Shown: positions 3,807-46,730 of the stretch, one piece after another | Numbering within the stretch: the first letter of the stretch is position 1 | Layout: every line of letters begins with the position of its first letter | Assembly (NCBI GenBank): GCA_963841545.1 | Contig: CAWJDE010000007.1 | Span: 27,764-91,763 of the forward strand | Length of the DNA: 64,000 bases | Reading direction: 5' to 3' | DNA from: an uncultured Chloroflexia bacterium | GTDB taxonomy: Bacteria; Chloroflexota; Limnocylindria; Limnocylindrales; CSP1-4 | The notes under the pieces: generated by a model | What the model was told of the DNA's origin: nothing | The model's input: the letters and a program-made list of their open reading frames with translations, nothing else | Database searches by the model: none | Position numbers and translations under genes: made by a program

Positions 3807-5015
3807 TCATTCGTAGCGGAGCGAGGCGATCGGATCAAGCCGGGCGGCCTGGCGGGCCGGCCAGACGCCGAACACGACGCCGACCAGCAGGCTGAACCCG
3901 ACGGCGACCAGCACGGTCAGCGGGCTGAACACGAACCCCCAGCCGGCGATGGCACCGATCGCCGCCGACGCCGCCACGCCGAGCACGATCCCGATCAGGC
4001 CCCCCAGCAGCGACAGCACGAGGGCCTCGACCAGGAACTGGAACAGGATGTCGCCATTGCGCGCGCCGACCGCCTTGCGGATGCCGATCTCACGGGTGCG
4101 CTCACGGACCGAGACCAGCATGATGTTCATGATCCCGATGCCGCCCACCACGAGCGAGATCGAGGCGATCCCCGCCAGCAGCAGGGTGAGGAACCCGGTC
4201 ACCGACGAGAACGTGTCGAGCAGCTGGGCCTGGCTCTGGATCGAGAAGTCGTCATTGGTGCCGTCGGTGCCGTGCCGCTGCTCGAGCGTGAACGTCATGA
4301 GCGCCTGGGTGGCATCGATCGCGTCGGCGCTCGCGACGCTGACGCCGATCGAGCGAACCGATTGGCCGCTCACGAAGTAGCGCTGCGCGGTCGAGATGGG
4401 GATCAGGATCTGGTCGTCCTGGCTGACCGGTCCCGACGAGCCCTTCGGCTGCAGGATCCCGACGACCCGGAACGGCAGCCCGCCGATCTGGATGTCGCTG
4501 CCGATCGACGACTGGTCGAGGCCCAGGTCGTCGGCCGTGGTGGCGCCCAGCACCGCGACCCGCAGGTGCTGGTCGACCGCAGCCTGGTTGAGGAACGAGC
4601 CGACCCACATCGTGTAGCTGCGAACCGCGGGGAACGCCGGCGTCGTGCCGACGATCGACGTCGTCGTGTTCTGGAGCCCGGCGATCACCGCTCGCTGCGT
4701 GTCCACCTCCGGCTCGACCGCTGCCACGCCGGTGAGCGTCGCAAGCGCCGTCGCGTCGTCGAGCGTCAGCGTGGTCGCGGAGCCGGCGGCGCCGCGCGTG
4801 AAGCCGTTGCGGGTGGCTCCGGGGGTGACCGTGAGGAGGTTGGTCCCGAGACCCTGGATGCGATCGGTGATGCCGCTGGTGGCGCCCTGCGCGACGGCGA
4901 CCAGGGCGACGATCGACCCCACCCCGATGATCACGCCGAGCATCGTGAGCACGGCGCGCAGCCGGCTCGTCCCGAGGCGCGAGATCGCCAGCCGCATGAG
5001 CTCGAGGGGGCTCAC
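3807..5015 (-). CDS. ABC transporter permease, FtsX/MacB-like
   Basis: An N-terminal TM helix, a large periplasmic domain and a C-terminal FtsX 4-TM bundle. It overlaps the ATPase gene by 4 nt. Confidence 0.85.
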   Translation of the reverse strand: MSPLELMRLAISRLGTSRLRAVLTMLGVIIGVGSIVALVAVAQGATSGITDRIQGLGTNLLTVTPGATRNGFTRGAAGSATTLTLDDATALATLTGVAAVEPEVDTQRAVIAGLQNTTTSIVGTTPAFPAVRSYTMWVGSFLNQAAVDQHLRVAVLGATTADDLGLDQSSIGSDIQIGGLPFRVVGILQPKGSSGPVSQDDQILIPISTAQRYFVSGQSVRSIGVSVASADAIDATQALMTFTLEQRHGTDGTNDDFSIQSQAQLLDTFSSVTGFLTLLLAGIASISLVVGGIGIMNIMLVSVRERTREIGIRKAVGARNGDILFQFLVEALVLSLLGGLIGIVLGVAASAAIGAIAGWGFVFSPLTVLVAVGFSLLVGVVFGVWPARQAARLDPIASLRYE

Positions 5016-5728
5016 TGGACGAGCAGCCCGTCGAGCACGTGAACCTGCCGTCGCGCATGCTCGGCCACGTCAGCGTCATGGGTGATGAGCACGACGGTCG
5101 TGCCGACGGCGTTGAGCTCGTGGAGCAGCTCGATGACCTCGGCGCCGGCGCGGCTGTCGAGGTTGCCGGTCGGCTCGTCCGCGAGGATCAGGGCCGGCTC
5201 TCCGACCAGCGCCCGAGCGATGGCGACCCGCTGCTGCTGCCCGCCGGAGAGCTCCGACGGCTCGTGGGTGGCCCGGTCCGCCAGCCCGAGCCGCTCCAGC
5301 ACTGCCATGGCCCGCTCGAGCCGCTCCTTGCGGCCCACGCCCTGGTAGAGCAGCGGGGTCGCCACGTTCTCGAGCGCGGACGTCCGGGGCAGCAGGTTGA
5401 ACGACTGGAACACGAACCCGATGGCCCGGCCGCGCACCCGCGCGAGATCGTCGTCGGTGAGCGCCTCGATCGGCGTTCCGCCCAGGTGGTAGGCGCCGCC
5501 GGTCGGCCGGTCGAGACAGCCGATGATGTTCATCAGCGTGGACTTGCCGCTTCCCGACGGCCCCACGATCGCGAGGAAGTCGCCCGGCCAGACGTCGAGG
5601 TCGACGCCGCGGAGCGCCGCGACCTCGAGCCGGCCGCTGCGGTAGATCCGGGTCACGCCGCGCAGGCTGATGACCGGGGTCGCGGCGGTGCCCCACGCCT
5701 GGAAGGCGCTCTCCACCTCGGCGCTCAT
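5012..5728 (-). CDS. ABC transporter ATP-binding protein (MacB-type ATPase)
   Basis: Walker [10 protein letters not shown], signature [15 protein letters not shown], Walker [12 protein letters not shown]. Confidence 0.9.
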
Positions 5729-7227
5729 GGCTGGACCGCCCGGAAGTTGCCGCCGCCGAAGCCGCCCCCACCGAAGCCACCCCCACCGAGGCCGCCCGTC
5801 GTGGTGGTCGAGCCCTGGCGCGTCGACGAGGTGCCCACCACGACGTCCGTCCCCTGCGAGATGCCGCCCTGGATCTCGGCCAGGGACGAGGTCACCAGCC
5901 CGACCTGCACGGCCACCAGCTGGGGGTTGCCAGAGCCGTCGAGGACGCGGACGCTGTAGTTGCCGGCGCTGCCGACGAGCGCGATCGAGGGCACGGCGAC
6001 GACGTCGCTCGCCGACGCGGTCGTGACGCTCACCTGGGCGCTCATCCCCGAGGCCGTCCCCGCGGGCGGCGTGGGCAGCGACACCACGATCGGATAGCTC
6101 ACCACGCCGCCACCGGTGCCGGCGCTCCCGATCGGGCTGATCTCCGTGACCTTGCCGGTGGCCGTCTGCGCGGTGGCCGTGATCGTGACGTCGGCATCCT
6201 GGCCGATCCGGAGCGACGGCAGGTCCGACTCGGCAATGCTGGCCGACACCTCGAACGCATCCGACTGCACCACGATCGCGGCCCCCGAGGGGGCGTCGAC
6301 GCCCTTGCTGATGTTGACCGAGACGACGACCCCATCGACCGGGCTCGCCAGCGACGCCGCATCGACCGTCGCCTGCGCCGTCACCACGGCCTGCTCCGCG
6401 GTCGCCACCGCGGCCTCGTCGGACGCGATCTGCGCGTCGGTGGCGCCCTGGATCTTGCTCTTGTAGGCCAGCTGGGCCGACTTCACCTGGTTCTGCGCGG
6501 ACTTGACCTGGTTGGCTGCCTGCGTGTTGGACTGGGCGATCTGGAGCCGCAGCGACGCCAGCGAGTTCTCGGCCTGCTGGATCGCGGCCTTGTCCTGGCT
6601 GATCTGGGTCGACGAGACCGGCGGGCTGGCGGCCCTGTCGGCGGACAGCTGGCGCTTGGCGGCGCTGACCGCGGCCTTCTGCTGCGACAGCTTGAGATTG
6701 TTCTGCCTGGTCGTCTGGGTCCGCGAGGTCCTGGCCTGGCTCAGCGACTGCTGCGCCTGGGTCACCGACAGCTTCGCCGCCGCCTTGTCCGTCGCGCTCA
6801 GCCCGCCCTTGTCGGTCGACAGCCTGGCCTTGGCGGAGTCGAGGTTCGCCTGGGCCACGGTGAGCGCGAGCTGGGCGTTGGAATCATCGGCGGTCGCCAG
6901 CACGTTGCCCGACGCGACGGCCTGCCCCGGGGTCACCGCCACCTCGGTCACGCGCCACGAGACGGTGCTGTTGCCGTTGCCCGAGCTGGCGCTCGACGAG
7001 CTCGAGGTCGCCAGCACCGGCTGCGAGCCGAAGGCGAGGTCGTAGGTGGCCACGGGACCGACCGTCCCCGTGGCGACGATCTGCTGGACGACGTTCGTGC
7101 GCGTCGCCGCGGCGGTCTGGTAACGCGTCGACGAGCTGGCCGAGCCACCGGGTGGGAACAGGGTGACGACGATCGCAGCGATGCCCACGATCACGAGCAG
7201 GAGCGTGCCAACCAGGCGGAGGCGCAT
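5725..7227 (-). CDS. HlyD/MacA-family periplasmic adaptor subunit
   Basis: I chose the MRLRLVGTLLLVIVG start, which gives a signal-anchor. The protein has a long Ala/Gln-rich coiled-coil, beta-barrel/lipoyl-like regions and a Gly-rich C-terminus. It overlaps the ATPase gene by 4 nt. Confidence 0.8.
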   Translation of the reverse strand: MRLRLVGTLLLVIVGIAAIVVTLFPPGGSASSSTRYQTAAATRTNVVQQIVATGTVGPVATYDLAFGSQPVLATSSSSSASSGNGNSTVSWRVTEVAVTPGQAVASGNVLATADDSNAQLALTVAQANLDSAKARLSTDKGGLSATDKAAAKLSVTQAQQSLSQARTSRTQTTRQNNLKLSQQKAAVSAAKRQLSADRAASPPVSSTQISQDKAAIQQAENSLASLRLQIAQSNTQAANQVKSAQNQVKSAQLAYKSKIQGATDAQIASDEAAVATAEQAVVTAQATVDAASLASPVDGVVVSVNISKGVDAPSGAAIVVQSDAFEVSASIAESDLPSLRIGQDADVTITATAQTATGKVTEISPIGSAGTGGGVVSYPIVVSLPTPPAGTASGMSAQVSVTTASASDVVAVPSIALVGSAGNYSVRVLDGSGNPQLVAVQVGLVTSSLAEIQGGISQGTDVVVGTSSTRQGSTTTTGGLGGGGFGGGGFGGGNFRAVQP

Positions 7228-27273: not shown

Positions 27274-28143
27274 TCAGCCGCTCCGCGGCGGATAGGCGTG
27301 GAACCCGCGGCCCGTCTTCTGCCCGAGGTGTCCCTGGGCGACCAGGTCGAGCAGGACCTGCGGCGGCGCGAACTGCGGCTGCCCGAACCCGTCCTCGAGC
27401 ACGCGCATGATCCCGAGGCACACGTCCAACCCGATGAAGTCCGCGAGCTCGAGCGGACCCATCGGGTGGTTGAGCCCCACCTTCGCCCCGGTGTCGATGT
27501 CCTCGGCCGTGCCGAGCCCCTCCTGGTAGGCGCGCATCGCCTCGGCCAGGAACGGCATCAGGATCCGGTTGACGATGAACCCGGGCCGGTCGGCCGACAC
27601 GATCACCTGCTTGCCCAGCTCGCCCGCGAGGTCACGGACCGCAGCCTCGGTGGCATCCGACGTCGCGGTCCCGCGGATCAGCTCGACCAGCGGCATGACC
27701 GGCACGGGGCTGAAGAAGTGCATCCCCACGAAACGCTCGCGCCGATCCTCGGCGACGGCGGCCGCGAGTCGATCGATCGAGATCGACGACGTGTTGGAGG
27801 CGAACACGGCGGGCCTCGGGGCGATCGGTTCGAGGTCGGCCCACAGGCGCGTCTTGACCTCGGCGTCCTCGAACACGGCCTCGATCACGAGGTCGGCGTT
27901 GGCGACCAGCTCCAGGTCATCGGTCACCTCCAGCCGTGCCAGCGTCGCGTCGCGGTCCTCCGGGGAGAGCCTGCCTCTGGCGACTGCGCGCTCGAGGTTG
28001 CCGGCGATCCGGTCGCGACCCGCCTGGGCGCGGGCCAGGCCGGGCTCGTACAGCGTCACGTGCTTGCCGATGGCTGCGTGGACCTGCGCGATGCCGTGGC
28101 CCATCAGCCCGGCGCCGGCCACGAACACCCGCTCGATCGTCAT
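27274..28143 (-). CDS. 3-hydroxybutyryl-CoA dehydrogenase (3-hydroxyacyl-CoA dehydrogenase family)
   Basis: A Rossmann motif (VAGAGLMGHGIA) and the 3HCDH signature NTSSISI...FFSPVPVMPLVE. Confidence 0.9.
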   Translation of the reverse strand: MTIERVFVAGAGLMGHGIAQVHAAIGKHVTLYEPGLARAQAGRDRIAGNLERAVARGRLSPEDRDATLARLEVTDDLELVANADLVIEAVFEDAEVKTRLWADLEPIAPRPAVFASNTSSISIDRLAAAVAEDRRERFVGMHFFSPVPVMPLVELIRGTATSDATEAAVRDLAGELGKQVIVSADRPGFIVNRILMPFLAEAMRAYQEGLGTAEDIDTGAKVGLNHPMGPLELADFIGLDVCLGIMRVLEDGFGQPQFAPPQVLLDLVAQGHLGQKTGRGFHAYPPRSG

Positions 28144-28236
28144 CGACGCAGCCTACGCCGTCGCGCCCGGCCCCGTCGGGATCGGCGCCGCGGGGATCGG
28201 GCCCGCGCCTCCCCGCTCGGGCGGCGGTCCGGCCGG

Positions 28237-29190
28237 TCAGCGGCCGCGCGAGCCACGCCCGGCGTCCTGGTCGAGCCGGGCCAGCAGCCGGTCCGCCGCC
28301 GCGTACGGGTCCAGCTCGTGGCGCGCCACGCCCTCGTAGACCTCACGCACCGAGGCGTCGCCCACGCGCTCCGCCAGCCGCTGGCGAACCCGCTCGGCGA
28401 CGACCTCCGCGATCTGGGCCGCGGCTCGCGAGACCCTGGCTGCGTGGACGGTCCGCCCATCGGCCCGGCGCTCGTCGAGCGCGGCGAGCAGCTCGCGGAT
28501 CCCCTCCCCGGTGACGGCGGTGGTGACGAGCACAGCGGGTCGCTTCGGGGCCGGGCGCGCCGGGTCCGTGCCGCTCCGCACGGCCGGGGTGAGCATCGCG
28601 CGCAGCTGGGACGCCGTGCGCTGCGCCCCGGGACGGTCGCCCTTGTTGACGACCACGATGTCGGCGACCTCGAGCAGGCCGGCCTTGATCGCCTGGACCT
28701 CGTCGCCCATCTCGGGTGCCTCGAGCACGACCGTCGTGTCCGCGGCAGCCGCCACCTCGACCTCGCTCTGGCCGGTACCCACCGTCTCGAGCAGGATGAC
28801 GTCGAACCCGGCCGCATCGAGCACGGCAGCGGCCGCGGTCGAGGTCGCGGCCAGGCCGCCCGCGTGGCCGCGCGACGCCATCGAGCGGATGAACACGCCG
28901 CCGTCGCCGGCGTAGGCCTGCATCCGGACGCGGTCGCCGAGCAGCGCGCCCCCGGTGATCGGGGACGACGGGTCCACGGCCACGACGGCCACGGACCGGC
29001 CGGCCGCTCGCAGCTCGGCGATGAGCGCGGCCGCGAGCGTGGACTTGCCCGCCCCGGGCGGTCCGGTGATGCCGACGAGATGCCCATGCCCGGCGGTCGG
29101 ATAGAGGCGGCGCAGCGCGTGCTCGGCGACGGGGGTGTGGTTCTCGACCGCCGTCAGCAGCCGCGCCAGCGACCGGCGGTCACCCGCCAT
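28237..29190 (-). CDS. meaB: MeaB/ArgK-family G-protein chaperone of B12-dependent acyl-CoA mutases
   Basis: A P-loop GITGPPGAGKST, with switch and dimerisation regions. I chose the start at MAGDRRSLARLL; an upstream GTG is possible. Confidence 0.8.
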   Translation of the reverse strand: MAGDRRSLARLLTAVENHTPVAEHALRRLYPTAGHGHLVGITGPPGAGKSTLAAALIAELRAAGRSVAVVAVDPSSPITGGALLGDRVRMQAYAGDGGVFIRSMASRGHAGGLAATSTAAAAVLDAAGFDVILLETVGTGQSEVEVAAAADTTVVLEAPEMGDEVQAIKAGLLEVADIVVVNKGDRPGAQRTASQLRAMLTPAVRSGTDPARPAPKRPAVLVTTAVTGEGIRELLAALDERRADGRTVHAARVSRAAAQIAEVVAERVRQRLAERVGDASVREVYEGVARHELDPYAAADRLLARLDQDAGRGSRGR

Positions 29191-29326
29191 CGCGGCGTCG
29201 GCGAGCGTCGCGGCGCGGACCGCCGCCGGGTCCCCGGCATCGGCATGCGCGCCTGGCGCCCGGACGCCGACGTCGTGCGAGCCACCGTCAGGGGCGCCGT
29301 CGGCCCGGGTGCCGGCCGCCACGCCC

Positions 29327-29731
29327 CTACTCGCGCGGTGTCGCGTTGGCGCGGATGAACTCGGCCACCTCGCCGATCGTCGTCCCGGGCCCGAACACCG
29401 CTGCCACCCCGGCCGCCTTGAGCGGCTCGACGTCATCGTCGGGGATGATCCCCCCGACGGTGACCAGGACGTCGTCGAGGCCCTGCTCGCGGAGCTGCGC
29501 GCAGACCCGTGGCACCAGCGTCATGTGCGCGCCCGACAGGATCGACAGGCCGACGACGTCGACATCCTCCTGGAGCGCCGCGGTGACGATCATCTCCGGC
29601 GTCTGGCGGAGCCCCGTGTAGACGACCTCGAACCCCTCGTCGCGCAGGCCGCGCGCCAGCACCTTGGCCCCGCGGTCGTGGCCGTCGAGGCCGGGCTTGG
29701 CGATCAGCACCTTGAGCGGTCGGTCGGTCAT
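29327..29731 (-). CDS. icmB: cobalamin-binding small subunit of an acyl-CoA mutase (IcmB/HcmB-like B12-binding domain)
   Basis: I chose the start [24 protein letters not shown]. The DxHxxG B12-binding motif and a Rossmann-like fold fit in about 135 aa. Confidence 0.8.
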
Positions 29732-29894
29732 GCCGCCGATTGTAGTGGCCCGGTCGGGTGCGACAGGGCTCGATGACCCGTCAGCCCGCATGCGCAGCCG
29801 GCCCACGGGTCCCGCCGCGCGACATCCTCCATGCAAGGGACGGATGGCGGGTCAGGCTGCCCTGCACGCCGATGCCGATTGCGCGCCGACGGGA

Positions 29895-33902: not shown

Positions 33903-34199
33903 GTGATCGACACAGGGATCGGCCGCGATGCGGAACGGCAGCGCTCCGCCGTCGTGGCGCGTGCTCTCGGCGACCCCAAGCGGCTGTGCGTCCTTGAGGC
34001 GCTGGCCGGCGGCGAAGCGTCCGTGGGTGAGCTCGCGGCATGCGTCAGCTGCCAGGTGCCGAACATGAGCCAGCACCTCGCGGTGCTGCGCTCGGCTGGT
34101 CTCGTCACGACACGTCGTGACGGGAACACGGTGTACTACCGCCTCGCGGACCCCAAGGTCATCGAGGCCTACAAGCTTCTTCAAACCATCGCCCGCTGA
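33903..34199 (+). CDS. ArsR/SmtB-family metalloregulatory transcriptional repressor
   Basis: I chose a GTG start. The HTH region reads LGDPKRLCVLEALAGGEASVGELAACVSCQVPNMSQHLAVLRSAGLV, and Cys residues are in a position consistent with metal or redox sensing. Confidence 0.7.
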   Translation: MIDTGIGRDAERQRSAVVARALGDPKRLCVLEALAGGEASVGELAACVSCQVPNMSQHLAVLRSAGLVTTRRDGNTVYYRLADPKVIEAYKLLQTIAR

Positions 34200-34246: not shown

Positions 34247-34591
34247 GTGGCGGAGATCAAGGCAGCGACCGACGACACGTTCGAGACGCTCGTCCTCAAG
34301 AACGACAAGCCGGTGGTCGTCGACTTCTGGGCCACCTGGTGCGGGCCGTGCAAGATGGTCGCACCTGAGATGGAGAAGCTCGCCGCCAAGTACGACGGCG
34401 TGGTGGACGTGGTCAAGGTCGACGTCGATGCGAACCCCCGCCTGTCGCAGGCGTTCGGGATCATGAGCATCCCGACGATCGCGTTCTTCAAGCCCGGCGC
34501 ACAGCCGCAGGGTGTGATCGGCTTCCGGCCGCTCGACCAGCTCGAGCAGGCCTTCGGCCTCAACACGATCGCGGCGCCCAAGGTCTCCTGA
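34247..34591 (+). CDS. trxA: thioredoxin
   Basis: The active site is WCGPC (FWATWCGPCKM), and the protein is 114 aa. Confidence 0.9.
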   Translation: MAEIKAATDDTFETLVLKNDKPVVVDFWATWCGPCKMVAPEMEKLAAKYDGVVDVVKVDVDANPRLSQAFGIMSIPTIAFFKPGAQPQGVIGFRPLDQLEQAFGLNTIAAPKVS

Positions 34592-34678: not shown

Positions 34679-35125
34679 TCAGCCGCCCGCAGCGCGGCGA
34701 TGGGCGAGCCGGATCCAGGCCTCCGCGCGATCGAGGGCGAAGCGGTCGGTCACGGTCGGCGAGAACGCCAGCCAGCCGGCACCGCGCGCGGAGGGTTGCG
34801 TGTCCGGCGTGGCCAGCGCCGCCCGGGCCACGCGCGCGTCCAGCGCGACCTCCAGCAGGCCCGGACCCAGAACGGCGAACACCCGGCCCGCGAGCGAGAG
34901 GCGCTCCCCCGCCGGGTCAGGGTCGACGGCGACCCCGCCGATACCGCCGATCACGGCCAGCACGCGGTCCTCGAGGGACTCCCCCGTCCCTTCCCCCGCG
35001 ATCGCCGCCCCGCTCGCCGCCTCTGCCTCGTCAAGCGGCTCCGCGTCGAGCGCGTCGTCGTCCTTCGAGCCGTCCGGCGCGCCGTCGTCCGTCAAGCCGT
35101 CGAGATCGCCCGGGCCGGACGGCAC
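34679..35125 (-). CDS. hypothetical protein
   Basis: A C-terminal roughly 150-aa region in the frame that follows the stop of the upstream gene. The start is uncertain and no motif was recognised. Confidence 0.3.
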   Translation of the reverse strand: MPSGPGDLDGLTDDGAPDGSKDDDALDAEPLDEAEAASGAAIAGEGTGESLEDRVLAVIGGIGGVAVDPDPAGERLSLAGRVFAVLGPGLLEVALDARVARAALATPDTQPSARGAGWLAFSPTVTDRFALDRAEAWIRLAHRRAAGG

Positions 35126-35133
35126 GTGCCGGG

Positions 35134-35625
35134 TCACCGTCCCGCGGCCGCGAGGACCGCCCGCAGGTCGGGCAGGTGTTCTTCGTAGTGGGCAGTCATC
35201 TCCCCGAGGAACCACTCCTGGTGGCCCGCGTGCTTGATCCATCGCGTCTCGGGCACCACGGTCAGATAGCCGCGGAGCTCCCCGGCGGTCTCGACGAACC
35301 GCCGCCGGAGCTCCGCGATCGGGACCTCGCGGAAGCGGGCGACCGCCTCGTCGTTGATCCGATCGCCTGCGCCCGGTGACGCCTCCCACTCGGCGTCGAT
35401 CCGCGCGATCGTTGGACTCTGCTCGTTGATCGCCAGCTCCTTGGCGCCGGCCAGGGCATCCTCCTGGCACACGAGGATGTGCCCCATGAGGTCCCGACCG
35501 GACCAGCCGTGCGCGCCCTCGACCGGGTGCTCGAGCTCCTCGTCGGTCAGGTCGGCAAGGACCTCGTAGGCGCGGAAGGCATCGCGCTCGTCTTCGAGGA
35601 AGGAGAGGGCATCGAGGTACATGCT
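35134..35625 (-). CDS. DinB/YfiT-like four-helix-bundle family protein, putative
   Basis: I chose the start MYLDALSFLED. His-containing helix motifs (HGWSGRDLMGHI, HAGHQEW) are typical of DinB_2 and mycothiol-dependent isomerase N-terminal domains. Confidence 0.45.
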   Translation of the reverse strand, partial: SMYLDALSFLEDERDAFRAYEVLADLTDEELEHPVEGAHGWSGRDLMGHILVCQEDALAGAKELAINEQSPTIARIDAEWEASPGAGDRINDEAVARFREVPIAELRRRFVETAGELRGYLTVVPETRWIKHAGHQEWFLGEMTAHYEEHLPDLRAVLAAAGR

Positions 35626-35854
35626 GCCGGCATCGTAGCCGAGACCGTCCGTGCCGGACGGACTCGTGCGCGGACTGTTGGTTCCGAGGGCCGCTCGCTC
35701 GGAGGCCGCCCCCATCCGCCGGCCATCCTCAGGCCACCCTCCCGGCCACGCACGATCCACGTTCGCCACGGGTCAGCCCTCACCGCCAACCGCGATCCAG
35801 ATCGGAGAACAGCCGCTGCGTCCGCCCGTCCGGCCGCGCATGCGGACCGGCCAC

Positions 35855-36310
35855 CTACCCCCGGCGCCTGATGGTCGCCGGGGTCCTTTTCGCGCGCCTC
35901 CGGGTGGAGCCTGCCTGAACGCCGATCACCGCCAGCCACGGGTCGAGGAGGATCGCCCGGTCGGACTCGGACAGGGCGTCTCGCACCAGCAGGGCGGCTG
36001 CGGCGTCGAGGACCGTCGGCGCTGCGGCCTTGCGCACGTCGGCCAGCATGAGGTCCGCAAGGCCGCTGCCAGCCTCATCGCCCACGATCGCACCGAGCCT
36101 CGTTGCCCATGCCGCGACCTCATGGCGGAGGCGATCCAGGCTGCGGCCGCCGTCCTGCGCCGCCGCCGCATCTTCGATGGCCCGCCACGCGGCACGCCGA
36201 TCGGAACGGTCCGTGGTCTGTGCGCCGGCAAGCGCCAGCAGCTCGCCGCGGTCGAGAAACGGCAGTCTCGCGAGCAGGTCCGCCACGGCTGCCATGCCGG
36301 TCTCGGCCAT
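35855..36310 (-). CDS. hypothetical protein
   Basis: The ORF MAETGMAAVADLLARLPFLD has acceptable codon usage and lies downstream of icmA. No motif was recognised. Confidence 0.35.
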   Translation of the reverse strand: MAETGMAAVADLLARLPFLDRGELLALAGAQTTDRSDRRAAWRAIEDAAAAQDGGRSLDRLRHEVAAWATRLGAIVGDEAGSGLADLMLADVRKAAAPTVLDAAAALLVRDALSESDRAILLDPWLAVIGVQAGSTRRRAKRTPATIRRRG

Positions 36311-36436
36311 GTCGCCACCCCAGCTCAAGATCGGCGCACGCCGATCTCCGCCGATCGTCGCCAGACGCTGATGTCCGGTCAAGGGCCGCGTGGCCGCCCG
36401 ACCTCGCGCGGCGCGAGGCGGTTCGTCCACAGGCTC

Positions 36437-38224
36437 TCAGACGGCGACGGGCTCGCGGTACTCCCCGAAGACCTCGCGCAGGACCTGGCACTGCTCGCCC
36501 AGGGTCGCGTAGGCGGCAGCGCAGCGCAGGAAGTGGGGCATCAGGTTGACCTCGCTCGACCCCGGGCGCGACGCCGCCGCGCGCAGCCCGGCCAACGCGG
36601 CACTGACGGCCTCCGCGTCGCGCTCGGCCCGGACGCGCTCCAGCCGGGCAAGGTGCCGCTCCAGGGATCCTTCGGGCACCTCGAGCACGGGCACCCGGAT
36701 CGGCTCGCCCTGGACGTACCGGTTGACCCCGACGATGCCGCGCTCCTGGGCCTCGAACTCGCGCTGGAACCGGTACGCGGCGTCGGCGATCTCGCGCTGC
36801 GGGTAGCCGTCGGCGATGGCCGCCACCATCCCACCCCGTCGATCGATCTCGTCGAGATACCGCCAGACCTCGCGCTCGACCCAATTCGTCAGCGACTCCA
36901 CGAACCATGAGCCGCCCAGCGGATCGACGGTCGAGGCAACACCCGTCTCCTCGAACAGCACCTGCTGCTGGCGCAGCGCGAGCAGCGCGGCCTCGGCCGT
37001 CGGCACCGCCAGCGCCTCGTCGTAGGCATCGGTGTGCAGGCTCTGCGTCCCGCCGAGGATCGCGGCCAGGGCCTGCGATGCGACCCGGGTGAGGTTGTTG
37101 AGCGGCTGCTGCGGGGTGAGGGACACGCCGGCGGTCTGCGAGTGGAACCGCATCCAGCCCGAGCGCTCGTTCTCGGCCCGGTAGCGCTCGCTCATGAGCT
37201 TCCACCAGATCCGTCGCGAGGCGCGGAACTTGGCGATCTCCTCGAAGAAGTCGGAATGGCTGTTGAAGAAGAACGACAGCCGCGGCGCGAACTCGTCGAC
37301 CCGCAGGCCGCGCGCCATGGTCGCCTCGACGTACGCCATCCCGTCGGCGATGGTGAACGCAAGCTCCTGGACCGCAGTCGAGCCCGCCTCCCGGATGTGG
37401 TAGCCGCTGATCGAGACGGTGTTCCACCTCGGCAGCTCGCGCGTCCCGAACTCGATCGTGTCGACGACCAGGCGCATCGACGGCTCGGGCGGGAACAGGA
37501 ACTCCTTCTGGGCGACGTACTCCTTGAGGATGTCGTTCTGGGTGGTGCCCTCGAGCGCGGCGCGGGGCACGCCCGCCTTCTCGGCCGCCGCGATGTACAT
37601 CGCCCAGATCGGCGCGGCCGGTGCGTTGATCGTCATCGAGGTGCTCACCCGGTCGAGCGGCAGGCCCGCCAGCAGCACCTCCATGTCGGCCAGGCTGCTG
37701 ACCGCGACCCCGCACGTTCCGAACTCGCCCTCGGCCTCGGGATCGTCGGTGTCGTAGCCGTACAGGGTGGGCATGTCGTAGGCGACCGAGAGCCCGGTCT
37801 GGCCCGCGTCGAGCAGCTGGCGGAAGCGGGCGTTCGTGTCCTCCGCGCTGCCGAAGCCCGCGAACATGCGCATCGTCCACGGCCGCGAGCGGTATCCCGT
37901 GGGATGGACCCCACGGGTGAACGGCGGCTCACCAGGCAGGCCGATGTCGCGCGGGCCGTCGAACGCCGCGTACCGCCCGACACCATCGCGCAGCGGCTCG
38001 CCGTGGTGGTCCACCGCGGTCGGCCCACCCGGACCGGACGGCCCGCCGCCGGGTCCCTCGACGGGCGCTTCGAGATCCCACGGGCCATACACACCGTCGA
38101 TGGGGAGGTCGCCCAGGGTGCTGAACCGGTCTCTCCGCTCCGGCAGGCGATCGAGCGACGGCGTCAGGCGCTCGACGCGCCAGGCCCGGCGGCGCTCGGA
38201 CCAGGCGTCGGGACGATCGCTCAT
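36437..38224 (-). CDS. icmA: B12-dependent acyl-CoA mutase large (catalytic TIM-barrel) subunit, isobutyryl-CoA-mutase-like
   Basis: It starts at MSDRPDAW inside the 893-aa track ORF and has the MCM N-terminal-domain signature ([40 protein letters not shown]). It lacks the fused B12 domain. It has Phe where MCM has Tyr89, and Gln (VAQKEF) where MCM has Arg207. Confidence 0.85.
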
Positions 38225-38257
38225 GGCCCCGGACTGTAGCACCGGGCCGGCCCCCGG

Positions 38258-38325
38258 ACCGGGCGACGGACTTCGGGCGACGGACTCGGGCGACGGACTC
38301 GGGCGACGGACTCCGGGCGGGAACA
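38258..38325. repeat. 15-nt tandem repeat (gggcgacggactcgg), about 4 copies, in a divergent promoter region
   Basis: It lies between the icmA start (minus strand) and the merB-like start (plus strand). Confidence 0.75.
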
Positions 38326-38377
38326 GCGCCGACGACACCGCCGACGACCCGCTTGCCACCGCCGCTACAGTCGGTGG

Positions 38378-39043
38378 ATGGCGCTCGACCTCGAGGCGCT
38401 CCGCGTCGCGGTCTATCGCTCGCTCGCGGCCACCGCCCGTGCGCCCGAGCGGGCCCAGCTCCTCGCGGAGCTGGACGCGACGGACGCAGAGGTGGTCGCC
38501 GGCCTGCGTGCGCTCCACGACGCGCATCAGCTGGTGCTCGATGACAGGGGCGACATCGTGCTGGCCCATCCGTTCGCGACCGTCGATCTCGGGTTCTCGG
38601 TCAAGGGCCGGCACACCCTGTGGTGGGGCGGCTGCGTCTGGGATTCGTTCGCGATCCCGCATCTCGTGCCGTCCGAGCCCGAGGTCCTGGTTGCCACGAC
38701 CTGCCCCGCGTGCGACCGCCCGCACGCCTGGGTCGTCGGACGCGACGGGCCACCGACGGGCGACCAGGTCGCCCATTTCCTGGTCCCGGTCCGGTCGATG
38801 TGGGACGACATCCTCCGAACCTGTGGCAACCAGCGCGTCTTCTGCAGCGTGATCTGCATCGACGCGTGGCTCGCCCGTGAGCGCCTGCAGCGTGGCTCGA
38901 TCGCGGACCTCGTCACGGTCTGGCAGCTCGCGAGCCACTGGTACGACGGCCGGCTCGAGCGCGGCTACCGGCGCCGGGAGCCGGACGAGGCGGCCGGCTA
39001 CTTCCGTCAGGCGGGGCTGCGCGGGCCGTTCTGGGGCTCGTAG
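38378..39043 (+). CDS. MerB-like organomercurial (alkylmercury) lyase-family protein
   Basis: CxxD (GGCVWD) and a downstream Cys (VFCSVIC) are spaced like MerB Cys96/Asp99/Cys159. An N-terminal helical domain is present. Confidence 0.65.
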
Positions 39044-39071: not shown

Positions 39072-39728
39072 TCAGAGCGACCCGAAGGTGTCCAGCGCCT
39101 TGAGCACGTTCGCGTCACCCAGGTCCGACGCGAGCAGGACCATCACTCGCCCCGGCTCCGACGCCGGCCAGGCGACGATGGTCTGCCCGGTGCCGTCGCT
39201 CTGGAGCACGTCCAGCCGCGAGCCGGGCCGTCCGGCGACGGTGAGCTCCGAGGTGGCGATCTTCTCCACCTTGCTGTTGCCCGACGCACCTGCCTGGTAG
39301 AAGTCGATCATCGCGCCCGGCGTGAGCCCGTCCGCCTCGAACACCGCGACCGTCAGCGCCGTGCCCCCCGCCAGCTCCCAGGTGGCGCCGGCGAAGTGGA
39401 CGCTCGAGATCCCCAGGCCCGCCAGGGCACCCAGCGCGCCCTCGGTGCAGCTCCGGCCCGAGTCGACGTTGTCCGGGGGCTGCCCTTCGTACTGGGTGGG
39501 TAACCGGGCTTCGAGATCCGGATAGGCGCCGGGCTGGCGTCCATCGGTGGTGCACGGCGAGGTGGGGTCGAAGCTGACCACGGGGATCGACGAGCCGCAG
39601 GCCGCGACGACGACGGCGATGAGCGCGGTACGGACGAGGCGCGGGGAACGGCGGATCACGTGGTTGAGCGTACCGGTGACCGGCCGGTCGCGAGCCGCCG
39701 AGCCTGCCGAGACGCACGATCCCGCCAC
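39072..39728 (-). CDS. putative lipoprotein / secreted hypothetical protein
   Basis: A signal peptide with a lipobox-like [12 protein letters not shown]. The start is uncertain. Confidence 0.5.
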
Positions 39729-40203: not shown

Positions 40204-40965
40204 TCAGTGGAACGGGTTCGACTGCCAGCCCGGGCGTGGCGGCCGGTGCTGCCGGCGGATCCCGCGGCGGTCGAGCTCTCCGCGGATCACCCGCGCGGCC
40301 ATCGCGAGCGCCGGGTCGCGGGTGATGGTTCCGGCCAGCCAGTCGATGTACGACGGCTCGAAGGCAGCGATCTCGCCCAGCGTGTGACCGTGGAACTTGC
40401 CGAACTCCATCTCGACGTCGAGGGCATCATCGAGGTCGGGGGCGACGGGCGGAACGTGCCCGGCGAGGATGTCGCGCTCCAGGGGTCCCGAAGGCTGGGA
40501 GGCCCGCAGCTCGGGTGCCCTCCGGGACATCCGTCGTGGCGGCTGGCCCGTCAGGGGGAGGCGCAGGCCCGGCGGCGTGATGGTCTGGTTCCGCGGGCGC
40601 ACCGTGCCGGTCAGGTCGAGACGCCCGGTGACCGGTCGAGTGGGACGCTCGGGGGGCGGCCAGCCGCGTGGCGTCTCGTGCGTCCCCGATCCCGTGCCGC
40701 CGGCCGTCCGGGCCCGGCCGGAGCGGGTCGCCCGACCGGTGGTCCCGTTGTGGTGCCCCTCGATCGTCTTGCCGGCCCGCGTCAACGCCGCGTACGCGGC
40801 GTTGATCTCGGCCATCCGCCGCGTCGCCCGGCGAACCGCTTCCGGGTCGTCGCCGGTCAGGTCGGGGTGGTGCTGGCGAGCGAGGGCGCGCCAGGCGGCC
40901 TTGATGTCGTCGGGGCTGGTGCCTTGCTCGATCCCGAGCACGCCGTACGGGTCCTTTGCGGGCAT
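40204..40965 (-). CDS. J-domain (DnaJ-like) protein with an uncharacterised C-terminal domain
   Basis: I chose the start MPAKDPYGVLGIE. The J domain carries the HPD motif (ARQHHPDL). Confidence 0.75.
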   Translation of the reverse strand: MPAKDPYGVLGIEQGTSPDDIKAAWRALARQHHPDLTGDDPEAVRRATRRMAEINAAYAALTRAGKTIEGHHNGTTGRATRSGRARTAGGTGSGTHETPRGWPPPERPTRPVTGRLDLTGTVRPRNQTITPPGLRLPLTGQPPRRMSRRAPELRASQPSGPLERDILAGHVPPVAPDLDDALDVEMEFGKFHGHTLGEIAAFEPSYIDWLAGTITRDPALAMAARVIRGELDRRGIRRQHRPPRPGWQSNPFH

Positions 40966-41063
40966 CCCTCGAGTGTACCGGCCCCGGCACCGGCGACCCC
41001 GGACGGGGATGACCCGGACCGGCCGCGCTTGACAGCACGGGCGAGGCGCGCTCCCCTTGACGC

Positions 41064-42356
41064 ATGTCACGTCTCGACCGAGCCCGCCGGGCCGGCCTGG
41101 TGGCCGCCCTGACGACGCTCCCGTTCGCCCTCGCCTACCGGTTCGCCATCGTGTACCGGGTGCGCGCCGGGTACCCGCACCGCCATCCGCCCGTCTGGAC
41201 GCCGGCCGACCTCGGCCTGCCGTTCGAGGAGATCGAGGTGCCGACCGACGACGGGATCACCCTCCCGGGCTGGTTCATCCGGTCGATCTGGGGCCAGGCG
41301 CGCGCACCGGGCGTGGTGCTCGTCCACGGCTGGGAGTCGGCCCGGGACCGGACGCTCCCCCACGCGATGGTGCTGCACGCCGCCGGGTTCCACGTGCTGA
41401 CGCTCGACGTCAGGGGCCACGGCGCGAACCCGCCCGAGTCGCTGCCGCTGTCGGTCGGCGAGTACGCGGCCGACGCGCGGGCCGGCGTTCGGGCGCTCCG
41501 CCGGCGGCCGGAGGTCACGACGATCGGGCTGCTGGGGCACTCGATGGGCGGCGCCGGCGTGCTCGTCGCGGCGGCGGGCGATCCGGACGTGTCCGCCGTG
41601 GTGGCCGTCGCCGCGCCGGCCGACCCCTATCGCCTCACGCGCCAGACCTTCCGGCTCGCACGGCTCCCGATCCCCGGCCCGATCGCCTGGCCGCTGGCCT
41701 GGCTCACGACCCGCGTCTACCTCAGGCCACGCAACCACACCGTGTCATCGGTCAGCGCGACCCGCGCGGTGCGCGAGATCGATGTCCCGGTCATGCTCGC
41801 CCACGGCACCGAGGATGCCGTGGTGCCCGTCGGGCATCTCGACCGCCTGGCTGCGGTTCGCCGCGAGGCCCGGCCCGACGCCGTGACCGAGACCCTGGTC
41901 GTGCGCGGCGGTCACCACTCGTGGCTCTACGAGGACCCCGAATATCGGGCGGCGATCGCCCGCTTCCTGGCGGCCTCGCTGGGCGGACCCGGGACCCCCG
42001 AGGAGGCGGCGGCCCTGGCGGCGCCGGTCGACGCCACGCGCCTGCCCGAGCCCGAGCGGCTTTCGGCGATCGACCGCGAGCCGGGCGGCATCCGATCGCT
42101 GGCGTCGATGCTGCGCCGTCGCCTGGCCAGCGAGCCCGGGCCCGGGTCGGGGCCGCCAGGCCGCGAACCCACGGAGCCGGATCCCGGTGATGCCTCGGGC
42201 AGGTCCGGAGCGTCGCACGTGCCGGATCTGCCGGGCATGTCGCGCGTGCCCGATGTACCGGGCAGGTCGCGCGTGCCGGATCTGCCGCGCGTGCCCGAGA
42301 TGCCGGGCGTGCCCGAGATGCCGGGCGTGCCCGAGATGCCGGGAGTGCCGCGATGA
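41064..42356 (+). CDS. alpha/beta hydrolase-fold protein with an N-terminal TM segment and a C-terminal PEMPGV repeat tail
   Basis: A nucleophile elbow GHSMGG, an HGWES region, and a C-terminus that ends in 3 x PEMPGV. Confidence 0.8.
   Translation: MSRLDRARRAGLVAALTTLPFALAYRFAIVYRVRAGYPHRHPPVWTPADLGLPFEEIEVPTDDGITLPGWFIRSIWGQARAPGVVLVHGWESARDRTLPHAMVLHAAGFHVLTLDVRGHGANPPESLPLSVGEYAADARAGVRALRRRPEVTTIGLLGHSMGGAGVLVAAAGDPDVSAVVAVAAPADPYRLTRQTFRLARLPIPGPIAWPLAWLTTRVYLRPRNHTVSSVSATRAVREIDVPVMLAHGTEDAVVPVGHLDRLAAVRREARPDAVTETLVVRGGHHSWLYEDPEYRAAIARFLAASLGGPGTPEEAAALAAPVDATRLPEPERLSAIDREPGGIRSLASMLRRRLASEPGPGSGPPGREPTEPDPGDASGRSGASHVPDLPGMSRVPDVPGRSRVPDLPRVPEMPGVPEMPGVPEMPGVPR
42215..42352. repeat. 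in-frame tandem repeats (18-nt gtgcccgagatgccgggc x3 plus about 33-nt related units) at the 3' end of the hydrolase gene
   Basis: Direct repeats read from the sequence. Confidence 0.65.
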
Positions 42357-42961: not shown

Positions 42962-44542
42962 CTACATCAGCTTGTAGCGCGGCCCTTCGCCGCCCTCGGG
43001 CGGCACCCAGCTGATGACCCCGGTCGGGCACTTGACCGTGCACGTCATGCAGTGGAGGCAGTTCGAGGGCGAGAGCACGATCTGCGAACCGTTCCAGCGA
43101 TACACGTCGCCCGGGCAGAAGTGCGTGCAGGCGTTGTCGTAATCGGCCTCGCAGGTCGCGCACGCCGCCGGGTCGGTGATCGTGATGTGCGGCGGCTCGT
43201 CCTCGCGGTGGAGCGCGCCCGTGAGCGACACGAACGTCGCGCCGTCCATCCGGCCCGGATCGGGCCGGTTGAGCCTGGCTCCCTTCTTCGTCGCCGGGCC
43301 GTCACGGTGCATGCCCAGCCGGCCGGGGATGAACGACTGGACCAGCGACAGTGGCGTGCCGGCGAACAGCCCGTACCGGAACACCTGTCGGTAGTTGCGC
43401 GCATGGCGCAGCTCGGGCAGCACGCCCCGGGTCTCGAGCCGGTCGCGGTAGCCGGTGAGCGAACCCACGCTCCCGTCGGCGCCCAGCGACTCGACCGCCG
43501 TGTCGGCCGCCGCCATGCCGGACAGGATCGCGTAGTGGATGCCCTTGATCTTCTCCATGTTCACGAGCCCGGCGCCGTCACCGACCAGCATCGCGCCCGG
43601 CGCCGTGAGCTCGGGCATCGCGTACCAGCCGCCTTCCGGGATCGTCTTGGCACCGGTCGCGACGGTGACGCCGCCCTTGAGGAGCCGGCTGATGTAGGGA
43701 TGCGCCCGGAACGTCTCGAACTCTCGCTGCGGATCGAGGTCGCCGTACTTCCAGTCGAGCCCGAGGATCAGGCCGACCGCGACCGTCTGCTCACCCAGCG
43801 AGTACAGGAAGCCGCCGCCGAAGACGCTGGGCCGGTTCGGGTAGCCAAGCGTGTGCATCACCCGGTTGTTGCCGAACGGGCTCGCCTCGGGGAACTGGAC
43901 GACGGCCTTGATGCCCAGCGAGTGGACCTGTGGGTTGGCGCCGCCCCCGAAGCGCTGGGCGAGCTGGGTCGAGATGACCCCGTGCGAGCCGTCGGCCACG
44001 ATCGTGATCGGCGCCCGGATCTCCTCGGCCGGGATGTGGTTGCCCTTCGGCGTCCCCCCGGCGGCGAGGCCCACCTCGGCCAGCCGGACGCCGCGCACGA
44101 CGCCGTCCTCGACGATCAGGTCGCGGGCCGAGAACCCGTGATAGATCTCGGCGCCGGCCTTGGTCGCCTGCTCGGCCAGGAACGCGACCAGGCGCGTGAT
44201 GGCGATCACGTAGTCGCCCGTGTGGTGCATCCGGGCGGGCACGATGCGAGCCGGGATCCGGTGCGCGGACGTCGCGCGCAGGAACAGCATGTCGTCGCGC
44301 TCGACCGGCACGAGGTGCTGGGTGAACGGATGGTGGATCCCCTTCCAGTCCGGGACCAGCTCGTCGAGGCAGCCCGCCTCGAAGGCGGCCCCCGAGAGCG
44401 CGTGGTTGCCCGGTGCCGGGGCCTTGTCGATGACCACCACGGACAGCTCGCGGCCGGCCTGGGCCGCCTGCTGCCTGACCCGGATGGCCGCGGCGAGGCC
44501 GGCGGGACCCGCGCCGACGATCAGGACGTCGATGCGCTCCAC
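42962..44542 (-). CDS. electron-transfer flavoprotein:quinone oxidoreductase (ETF-QO), with a C-terminal 4Fe-4S ferredoxin-like domain
   Basis: A GTG start 1 nt after the stop of the upstream etf gene, an FAD GxGxxG motif (IVGAGPAGLAAA), and a C-terminal Cys cluster (CATCEADYDNACTHFCPGD...CLHCMTCTVKCP). Confidence 0.85.
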   Translation of the reverse strand: MERIDVLIVGAGPAGLAAAIRVRQQAAQAGRELSVVVIDKAPAPGNHALSGAAFEAGCLDELVPDWKGIHHPFTQHLVPVERDDMLFLRATSAHRIPARIVPARMHHTGDYVIAITRLVAFLAEQATKAGAEIYHGFSARDLIVEDGVVRGVRLAEVGLAAGGTPKGNHIPAEEIRAPITIVADGSHGVISTQLAQRFGGGANPQVHSLGIKAVVQFPEASPFGNNRVMHTLGYPNRPSVFGGGFLYSLGEQTVAVGLILGLDWKYGDLDPQREFETFRAHPYISRLLKGGVTVATGAKTIPEGGWYAMPELTAPGAMLVGDGAGLVNMEKIKGIHYAILSGMAAADTAVESLGADGSVGSLTGYRDRLETRGVLPELRHARNYRQVFRYGLFAGTPLSLVQSFIPGRLGMHRDGPATKKGARLNRPDPGRMDGATFVSLTGALHREDEPPHITITDPAACATCEADYDNACTHFCPGDVYRWNGSQIVLSPSNCLHCMTCTVKCPTGVISWVPPEGGEGPRYKLM

Positions 44543-44543
44543 G

Positions 44544-46435
44544 TCATGCCTCCTGCGTCGCGCGGACGAGCTCGGGCACGACCGTCTCGAGGTCGCCCAC
44601 GACGCCGAAGTCCGCGTAGTTGAAGATCCGCGCCCGCGGGTCCTTGTTGATCGCCACCACCGTGTCCGACATCTGCATCCCGGACACGTGCTGGACGGCA
44701 CCCGAGATGCCGACCGCGATGTACAGCTTGGGCGCGACCGTCTGGCCGGTCTGGCCCACCTGGTAGTCGTGGGTCGTGTAGCCGTCCTCGACCGCGTGCC
44801 GGGACGCGGCGACCTTGGCCTCGTCGCCGAGCACGTGCTCGAGCCCGTCGGCGAGCGGCTGCAGGAACCGCTCGAACTCCACCCTGGAGCGGATGCCATG
44901 GCCGCCCGCGACGATGATCTTGGCGTCCCGGATGCTGACCTTGGATACGAACGACTCGACCGGCGTGATCTCGACGCCCAGGTCGTGGGCCTCGAGCTCC
45001 GGCACGACCCGGACGACGTCGCCCGTGCGCGCGTCGTCGCGTCGCGGAACCTTGAACACGCCGGGCCGGACGGTCGCCATCTGGGTCGGCAAATCCTTGG
45101 TCATGATCGTGGCCATGATGTTGCCGCCGAGAGCCGGACGGGTCTGCTTGAGGATCCCGGTCAGCTCCTGGCCGCCCTTGGCATGGTCGCCGATCTCGAG
45201 CTTGGTGCAGTCGGCGGTCAGCCCCGAATCGCAGGCGTAGGCGACGCGCGGTGCGAGCTCGCGGCCCATCGGCGTCGCCCCGAACAGCATCACCTGCGGC
45301 CGTCGCTCGCGGACGAGATCGGCGATCGCCTTCTTCCACGGGATGGGCGAGAACTCCGCCAGCATCGGGTGCTCGAGCGAGTACACGACGTCGGCCCCGT
45401 GGGCGATCAGCTCGGCGGGCAGCTCGCCCCCCTCGGCGCCCGTCAGGACCACACCCACCCGCTCACCCAGGAACGCGGCCAGCTCGCGCGTCTTGCCCAG
45501 CAGCTCGAGCGAGACCGACTTCAGCCCGTCGCCCTCGCGCTCGGCCAGCACCCAGAGCTCGCCGCGAAAGGTCGGCTCGCGGCCGTCGAGCACGTAGGCG
45601 CCCTCCTCGTGGGCCGCGGGCCCGCCGCCGGCGAGGCGGTACTTGGCCTGGACGCGGCGCAGGAGGTCGGCGACGTCGGGGATCATCTCGCACGTCTTCG
45701 CGCGGTCCTCGGCCGGCGAGAAGATCCGGTAGACCTGCGTCCGGCTGCCCTTGATGCCGACCCGGTCGGGCGCCGCGCCCACGTCGGCGGCCGACCACGT
45801 CCGGATCTCCGCGTCGCGCGCCGCGCGCGCCGCGTGGAACCCGCGGTACAGGGTGTCGGTGCACGAGGTGACCGTCACCAGGACGGGGAACCGTCGCGGG
45901 ACGATGTCCTCGGTGCCCTGGGCGCCGATGCGGCGGAAGGTCAGCTCGGGATCGGTCCGCACGCCCTGCGCGTACGCGATCTGCTCGATGCCCAGGTCCT
46001 CGGCGATCTGCGGGGGCACCTGTGCGGTGTCGCCGTCGACCGACTGCATGCCGGTCACGATCAGGTAGTCGTGGCTGCCGTCGAACAGCTCGGTCTCGAT
46101 GCGCCGGATCGCCATGGCCAGCGAGTACGCCGTCGCGACCGTATCCGCGCCGCCCATGGTCCGGTCGGTCAGCAGGATCGCCTCACCTGGCGCCCGCGAC
46201 AGGCAGTCCACCAGCACATCGCGGGCCTGCGGGGGGCCCATGGTCAGGTAGATCGTCTTCGCGTCCGGATCACCGGCGGTGATCCGGCGAGCAAAGCTCA
46301 GCGCGTGCAGATCGAGCGGGTTGAGGACGCTCTCGAGCATGGCGCGACGGAGCGTGCCCTTGTCGCGGTCCCAGGCATCCTCGGGGATGTTCGAGACGTC
46401 CGGGACCTGCTTGACGAGAACGATGCAGTGCATAT
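44544..46435 (-). CDS. fused electron-transfer flavoprotein beta-alpha (EtfB-EtfA in one polypeptide)
   Basis: It starts at [12 protein letters not shown], typical of an EtfB N-terminus, and continues without a stop into an EtfA-like C-terminal half with FAD-binding motifs ([19 protein letters not shown]). The fused protein is about 630 aa. Confidence 0.85.
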
Positions 46436-46730
46436 GGCACCCGGTGCAGGGGGCGGCCCGCGTGACGGGCCTGTCAACAGCGCGCGGCGTTGGTCGCGAT
46501 CGTGCGGTCGCCCCGACTATCGTCCCCGGTCGGGTCATCCTGGCATAGGGAGGACGGACGGTGATCCGGCCTGCCGATGGCCCCTCGAACCCTGCCGAGC
46601 GACCCGTGTCCACGGGACCCTCGGCGCCGGGCCACCGGGACCGTGACCCTCGCCGCCGTGGCGGCAGGGGTGGCCGGCTCGGCGGGCCGCGGGCCGGCGG
46701 CGCTCCCGGCGCCCCAGCTGCCACGGGCCG

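Follow-up and report, generated by a model that had tools for sequence, protein, structure and literature searches.

A stand-alone chromosomal MerB relative of Chloroflexota with an intact catalytic triad and a predicted second cysteine site

To our knowledge, the organomercurial lyase MerB is the sole enzyme dedicated to cleavage of the mercury-carbon bond. Its evolutionary origin, and the selective pressure acting on it, have been called unclear in a review (PMC10114901). A 64,000-nucleotide stretch of DNA from an uncultured Chloroflexia bacterium (hereafter the window; assembly GCA_963841545.1, contig CAWJDE010000007.1, positions 27,764 to 91,763) raises the question of what a MerB-like protein does when its gene stands alone. 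The gene (38378..39043, + strand, stop codon included) has an ATG start and encodes a MerB-superfamily protein of 221 amino acids (aa). The initial annotation of this DNA had described it as a stand-alone MerB-like lyase without merA, merR or merT context. This description held, as tblastn searches (E ≤ 1e-3) found no relative of MerA, MerR, MerT, MerP, MerD or MerE in the 64 kb window, and the isolation of the gene extends to 80 related loci.

The explanation we favor, with a probability of about one half, is that the protein is a MerB-type organometal lyase of a distinct chromosomal subfamily of the Chloroflexota and Actinomycetota which, as judged from sequence comparison and a predicted model, would also hold a structural Cys4 zinc site. 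The subfamily is widespread, and a cytosolic location is part of this explanation.

The gene is native and under purifying selection. Against a sequence of 73% GC, the GC of its codon positions is of the coding type (GC1/2/3 = 0.75/0.50/0.91), and comparisons with its two syntenic orthologs gave dN/dS values of 0.19-0.31. An 893-aa open reading frame (ORF) that covers the gene on the opposite strand was rejected as an artefact of high GC content. The mutase gene contained in that ORF starts at 38224 (MSDRPDAW...), because tblastn alignments to the orthologs at the two syntenic loci (L002 and L003) begin at residue 1.

Family membership and fold both showed the protein to be a divergent but true relative of MerB. 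Residues 73-189 matched the Pfam MerB model PF03243 (Alkylmercury lyase) over profile positions 8-125 (of 126) with an E value of 2e-14 and 54.1 bits, against a gathering cutoff of 27. A profile built from the family, whose alignment comprised 31 members, matched the structure of MerB2 (PDB 5C17) at E 6e-4, and in this match the catalytic columns were in register. The predicted model has the N-terminal helical/winged-helix domain and NosL/MerB-like core of the MerB fold, and Foldseek placed MerB or MerB2 in each of its first 11 ranks (lowest E 6e-10), the next match coming only at E 0.4. In addition, the four residues of the published MerB signature (Cys96, Asp99, Cys159 and Cys117; Pitts and Summers / Christakis et al.) correspond in the window protein to C86, D89, C149 and C109, all of which are invariant across the family alignment.

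Five MerB proteins from annotated plasmid records served as references: the R830b merB product, which is 100% identical to the R831b-type probe sequence; Bacillus MerB1 and MerB3, whose genes sit in a cluster with merR, merE, merT, merP and merA; a Mycolicibacterium MerB, whose gene adjoins a MerR-like regulator and a merA-like ORF; and the product of a Gordonia gene that is merB by annotation. For the Mycolicibacterium record (locus L083, a Mycolicibacterium aubagnense plasmid) PLSDB lists no gene at 4300..6000, between the MerR-like regulator and merB. This interval translates as a MerA-like flavoprotein in two reading frames (364 and 178 aa) and is probably a frameshifted or pseudogenised merA left out of the PLSDB gene table.

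The initial annotation had proposed that the spacing of the MerB catalytic triad is kept in two motifs, GGCVWD and VFCSVIC. The first of these is present at residues 84-89, and its C86-V-W-D89 (38633..38644, + strand), at the N-terminus of helix 87-96 in the first treble clef, is equivalent to Cys96-x-x-Asp99 of MerB. This assignment was obtained from a hidden Markov model (HMM) alignment to PDB 5C17, from MAFFT alignment with the five MerBs and from a larger alignment. The second motif was misassigned, as its two cysteines fall opposite Ala166 (C156) and Thr170 (C160) of R831b-type MerB. The equivalent of the catalytic Cys159 is instead C149 (38822..38824, + strand), within RTCGNQR; HMM alignment placed it on the catalytic Cys of MerB2 and on the corresponding Cys of R830b and MerB1. 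C86, D89 and C149 are invariant in the 31 family members and the five references. At the level of sequence the triad is thus conserved, as had been claimed, and the second motif is a separate, family-specific feature. The alignment with R831b-type MerB that the initial annotation had suggested as a check left the catalytic Asp and Cys in place, and the fold proved to be that of MerB.

The catalytic-position Asp is invariant in the tight clade to which the window protein belongs and varies in remote relatives. In the wider 'WY...FW' branch position 89 is D, C, E, S, G or N, with C86, C149 and H133 conserved. The fixation of D89 within the clade, while this position drifts in remote relatives, is consistent with a retained role as proton donor.

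Within this wider branch, a sub-branch of eight remote relatives with 24-31% identity (P0196, P0212, P0222, P0226, P0229, P0262, P0263 and P0269) has Cys in place of the catalytic Asp, giving C-x2-C plus the equivalent of C149, and is without the C109/C112 knuckle. Judged by its residues, this three-Cys site looks more like a metal-binding site than a protonolysis centre.

The window protein has exactly six cysteines, of which five are invariant in the family and the sixth, C160, is shared by at least 90% of members. Three of these conserved cysteines, C112, C156 and C160, are additional to MerB, in that R831b-type MerB has Thr, Ala and Thr at these positions. The core of MerB has been derived from a fused pair of TRASH-type treble-clef zinc fingers in which zinc was lost and the active site arose at the old ligand positions of the first clef (Kaur and Subramanian; PMC4999995). 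A supplementary table of that study places the treble clefs at MerB residues 72-106 and 114-177, the latter being TC2. In the window protein TC2 maps to roughly residues 106-167. Its knuckle carries C109-P-A-C112 (38702..38713, + strand) in the turn between strands 102-108 and 115-121, C109 being the family-invariant equivalent of MerB Cys117, and its terminal helix carries C156-S-V-I-C160 (38843..38857, + strand) at the N-terminus of helix 158-168. The latter is a family-specific second ligand pair of what is putatively a Cys4 (TRASH-type) site. The four cysteines are therefore at the places in the sequence where treble-clef ligands belong, with the C-x2-C at a β-hairpin knuckle and the C-x3-C at a helix N-terminus that mark the TRASH arrangement.

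Co-variation among distant full-length relatives, drawn from an exhaustive search of representatives (1,860 cluster representatives, E ≤ 1e-3), supported the pairing of these residues. Position 160 was Cys or His in 11 of the 15 relatives with a CxxC knuckle and in one of the 17 without it (Fisher p = 1.3e-4), and such swapping between Cys and His is a typical trait of metal-ligand sets. Bacillus MerB3 carries CxxC...C-x3-H in the equivalent columns and reportedly breaks down arylmercurials (Chien 2010, as cited by PMC8261052). As MerB3 combines comparable ligands with a reported activity, the additional cysteine site is compatible with lyase activity.

In comparison with TRASH fingers and NosL, which have the NosL/MerB-like fold, the second clef of the window protein has the full C-x2-C...C-x3-C ligand set of a predicted zinc site. 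It differs from the TRASH consensus in the linker between the two ligand pairs, which at 43 residues is outside the consensus spacing; the TRASH linker was reportedly given as 19-22 residues by Ettema et al. in 2003. In addition, the Pfam models for TRASH, YHS and NosL did not match residues 99-173 even at E ≤ 10, PF03243 being the only match. We consider the Cys4 set most likely to be a structural zinc site, as predicted from these positions.

Several other features distinguish the family. Directly before the catalytic Cys is a family-specific Gly84-Gly85 insertion (WWGGC in place of YAW-C), and Gly150 occupies the position of MerB Cys160. Residues 186-221 (38933..39040, + strand) form a basic and aromatic C-terminal extension with an isoelectric point (pI) of 9.7, in which W188, Y189, G191, R192, G196, R199, R200, L214, G216, F218 and W219 are invariant columns. 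This 36-residue extension is absent from the five MerB references and is kept in relatives of 24-35% identity.

Judged by homology, the protein most likely works like MerB, and we infer the following scheme for its reaction and substrate, the onward path of the metal and the binding of zinc. The thiolates of Cys86 and Cys149 would take hold of the metal in an organometal, with R-Hg+ as the most plausible substrate. Protonation of the carbon by Asp89 would then release R-H, and the metal ion would stay on Cys86, Asp89 and Cys149. As a MerA partner is missing, cellular thiols or proteins of the thioredoxin type would have to take the metal away. C109-x2-C112 and C156-x3-C160 would meanwhile hold a structural zinc ion that stabilises the second treble clef.

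A word-indexed search at E ≤ 1e-3 yielded over 3,200 homologs, and 541 stretches were confirmed in species-representative genomes. The best 120 homologs, besides one identical entry, were nearly all 217-248 aa in length and 60-91% identical to the window protein. The subfamily is concentrated in the Actinomycetota and Chloroflexota, with many of its members in metagenome-assembled genomes (MAGs) from environmental samples. The closest relatives, with about 70% identity and shared synteny, are in MAGs labelled Candidatus Limnocylindrales or Chloroflexota, and those with 58-67% identity are from Chloroflexota and many Actinomycetota. The actinomycetotal carriers include Actinomadura, Amycolatopsis, Streptomyces, Nocardioides, Thermomonospora, Agromyces and Microbacterium. 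Some MAGs have two copies (L004 and L021; L018 and L023; L065 and L072). The public names of the protein and its relatives are "Alkylmercury lyase", "organomercurial lyase" and "hypothetical protein".

Relative to MerB of R831b/R830b (PDB 3F0O, 3F0P; UniProt P77072), with which it shares about 20% identity (23% in the MAFFT alignment), the window protein has the GG insertion, Gly150 for Cys160, the additional C112, C156 and C160 and the C-terminal extension, and is without the first ~20 MerB residues. Moreover, that MerB is transposon- or plasmid-borne with a mer operon, whereas the window gene is chromosomal and has none. Bacillus MerB2 (PDB 5C17) has Ser for Asp99 and is without equivalents of C112 and C156, while Bacillus MerB3 (from a TnMERI1-type mer cluster) has no C-terminal extension and has a Cys-rich insertion of its own. 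Both MerB2 and MerB3 are encoded within a mer cluster (merA, merR, merT, merP), and their pairwise identity to the window protein is 14-23%.

Orphan MerB homologs are not unusual, and the window protein belongs to a known, catalogued group. Christakis, Barkay and Boyd (2021, PMC8261052) found no merA in 906 of 1,795 merB-carrying genomes, including those of Streptomyces, Amycolatopsis, Mycobacterium and Nocardia. The window protein resembles these orphans in carrying the signature residues and having no MerA nearby, and its family occurs in the MerB-only genera Amycolatopsis and Streptomyces. In the text consulted, that article describes neither the Cys4 pattern nor the GG insertion nor the C-terminal extension. 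The complete TRASH-like Cys4 set, the GG insertion and the C-terminal extension are apparently undescribed, with the proviso that Kaur and Subramanian (2014) may already note the Cys4 set.

A number of observations weigh against the assignment as an organomercurial-type lyase. Identity to the authentic MerBs is just 17-23% in the MAFFT alignment with the five references, and no NCBIfam curated model, including that of MerB, matched at E ≤ 1. A single-sequence phmmer search of the PDB returned no MerB at E ≤ 10, which is why the family profile was needed. Comparisons of 80 related loci from named genomes, with flanks of up to 10 kb on each side (81 loci with the window, WIN), found no mer operon by tblastn; apart from three MerR-family matches of a generic kind, these flanks contained only one weak MerA-like match, at 27% identity and a distance of 7 kb. 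No family member was found on a true plasmid, the only plasmid-borne sequences being relatives of ~28% identity on Ralstonia megaplasmids, whose annotated context gave no functional clue. Without mer linkage and mobile plasmids, the family is atypical for a resistance determinant. The housekeeping-like distribution, the lack of a nearby MerA and the conserved family-specific residues around the site all speak against mercury as the physiological substrate, and the GG insertion, the invariant H64, H133, W142 and D144 and the C-terminal extension suggest an altered pocket or partner. Furthermore, according to PMC8261052, no activity data have been reported for MerB-only organisms, and Hg(II) produced without MerA is expected to be harmful. 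Natural methylmercury levels have also been considered too low to explain selection for MerB (PMC10114901).

These considerations lead to a tentative alternative, which we regard as possible, namely that mercury is not the physiological target. The protein may act on some other carbon-metal(loid) bond, such as that of an organotin, an organolead or a natural organometallic metabolite, or it may bind and hand off a thiophilic metal like the structurally related NosL, a Cu(I) chaperone. Such a role would fit the housekeeping-type chromosomal distribution, the lack of mer linkage in the 80 loci and of mobile plasmids, and the low natural methylmercury levels. It would also fit the 'WY...FW' branch, where variation at position 89 with retention of C86, C149 and H133 is suggestive of a metal-ligand set rather than a fixed acid catalyst. 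However, the full triad including Asp89 is invariant in the clade of the window protein, and this would be needless for a pure binding protein. MerB is able to accommodate other metals, and its D99S variant binds Cu(II) (PMC8261052; Haft and Gwadz preprint), but none of the data here indicate an alternative substrate, and across the 81 loci the gene has no conserved neighbour that would be a transporter, a chaperone target or a partner metalloenzyme.

A precedent for a role other than mercury resistance is SaoL, a divergent branch of PF03243 with less than 15% identity to MerB and conserved triad positions, whose proposed role is in organometallic metabolism (Haft and Gwadz 2022 preprint). SaoL (NF040728) and the window protein are alike in being divergent PF03243 branches that conserve the triad positions. 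However, SaoL is a selenoprotein with Cys-Sec at the Cys159 position, found only in anaerobes and within a conserved nine-gene SAO neighbourhood. The window protein is not a SaoL, as it has C149-G150, no in-frame UGA, no NCBIfam match and no conserved neighbourhood.

The genes surrounding the window gene raise a further alternative. Divergent from it, as the initial annotation had noted, is the gene for an MCM-type acyl-CoA mutase large subunit of the split type (36437..38224, - strand; TIGR00641, 700 bits, no fused B12 domain). We consider it very unlikely that the MerB-like protein acts on cobalt-carbon bonds or otherwise supports a B12-dependent acyl-CoA mutase, such as through repair or dealkylation of cobalamin. 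A gene for an acyl-CoA mutase large subunit is near the MerB-like gene in two unrelated lineages with differing gene orders, being divergent in WIN, L002 and L003, 3.5 kb away in L078 and co-directional directly downstream in the Actinomycetota loci L026, L027, L044 and L062 (three of them labelled Nocardioidaceae). This amounts to only eight of the 81 loci, however, and most family members have unrelated neighbours. The window also encodes the chaperone MeaB and the B12-binding mutase small subunit, but at 8-10 kb from the large subunit gene rather than adjoining the MerB-like gene. Cobalt is among the metals forming metal-carbon bonds considered in the discussion of SaoL (Haft and Gwadz preprint), although a Cys/Asp/Cys site for a soft, two-coordinate metal is no obvious fit to corrin-bound cobalt, and such a role is without precedent. 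The recurrent mutase neighbourhood is a weak signal that could reflect chance or a functional link. In the same Actinomycetota loci, a gene for a YihY-like membrane protein ends 5 nucleotides before the MerB-like start.

All-against-all clustering of neighbours in the 81 loci identified no conserved operon partner, and the immediate neighbours were nearly all locus-specific. The top neighbour cluster was discarded, being an antisense shadow ORF that overlaps the MerB-like gene itself. Some neighbours do recur within a genus. Their sequences suggest a YihY-like membrane protein, a LuxR-type regulator, an SDR, an MTHFR-like protein, a polyprenyl synthase and an epoxide hydrolase-like protein; as these share no relationship with each other, they were dismissed as genus-level synteny. 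A literature search for regulon or stress data on actinobacterial alkylmercury lyases turned up nothing relevant.

The N-terminal domain (residues 1-70; 38378..38587, + strand) is winged-helix-like, with three helices and a hairpin in the model, and in a fold search it weakly matched the winged helix-turn-helix folds of MntR, DtxR, LexA and ArsR. Its acidic character (pI 4.73; 6 K+R and 12 D+E) makes DNA binding unlikely. That the protein is a metal-sensing transcription factor, with this winged helix joined to a C-terminal metal-binding domain, is accordingly most improbable, since the putative recognition helix is net negative, canonical MerB, an enzyme, aligns across the same N-terminal region, and no divergent target gene is conserved in the 81 loci.

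The remainder of the window around the gene is a region of acyl-CoA metabolism and not a resistance island. At 27274..29836 and 42962..46724 (- strand) are genes for 3-hydroxyacyl-CoA dehydrogenase, MeaB, the B12-binding mutase small subunit, ETF-QO and ETF alpha/beta, the ETF alpha/beta region reading as one 726-aa ORF in the window. Downstream of the MerB-like gene is a convergent ORF (39072..39728, - strand) with a lipobox-like VVAAC, in keeping with the lipoprotein neighbour reported in the initial annotation; it is lineage-specific and conserved only in L001-L003. Further downstream are genes for a DnaJ-domain protein, an alpha/beta hydrolase and a nitroreductase. In a 288-aa protein (40204..41070, - strand), a DnaJ (J) domain at the N-terminus is unusually paired with an ExoX-like_C motif (PF20600) at the C-terminus.

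On the other side, directly downstream of the mutase gene, is a 191-aa ORF (35855..36430, - strand) that matches no Pfam or NCBIfam family and is without a relative at the 80 related loci. Beyond it are a DinB-family ORF (35134..35769), a thioredoxin gene (34247..34591, + strand) and an ArsR/SmtB regulator encoded by the C-terminal part of an ORF ending at 34199 (+ strand). The regulator and thioredoxin are ~4 kb upstream of the MerB-like gene and not adjoining it, just as the initial annotation had placed them. These genes and DinB were considered as a dispersed metal/thiol module, and this was rejected because the mutase gene and the unannotated ORF split them from the MerB-like gene. The window DinB is also unrelated to the DinB of the Mycolicibacterium mer locus (E 12). 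A 263-aa ORF (34679..35470, - strand) with no Pfam or NCBIfam match overlaps the DinB-family ORF and may be no real gene.

The divergent intergenic region shared by the MerB-like and mutase genes (38225..38377) holds a window-specific insertion of tandem repeats. TRF identified a 13-bp repeat, CGGACTCGGGCGA (38255..38319; 4.9 copies, 92% matches), and a weaker 12-bp repeat, ACACCGCCGACG (38323..38352; 2.6 copies). Together the repeats represent an insertion of ~113 bp (region 38255..38352) that is absent from the syntenic loci L002 and L003, in which the two start codons are ~45-50 nucleotides apart. The 13-bp repeat was rejected as a regulatory element, as it is absent from the syntenic relatives and there were no consensus promoter or terminator matches.

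For the window itself, the outcome is chiefly a corrected and better-characterised annotation. For the family, the implications are potentially broader. Should the Cys4 site prove to be a zinc finger that was retained, the family would bear on the proposed route from TRASH to MerB. Since Pfam-based annotation names the subfamily alkylmercury lyase, whether or not its members demethylate methylmercury affects how metagenomic "merB" abundance is to be read. We also entertain the speculation, which we regard as improbable, that the subfamily is an ancestral-like MerB-fold lineage with an intact zinc-binding TRASH clef and a housekeeping role with organometals or thiophilic metals that has nothing to do with mercury resistance and that in some lineages may be connected to B12-dependent acyl-CoA mutases. 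If this speculation is correct, the family would be a missing link between non-catalytic zinc fingers and the organomercurial lyase, and many of the "merB" counts in soil metagenomes would not represent methylmercury demethylases.
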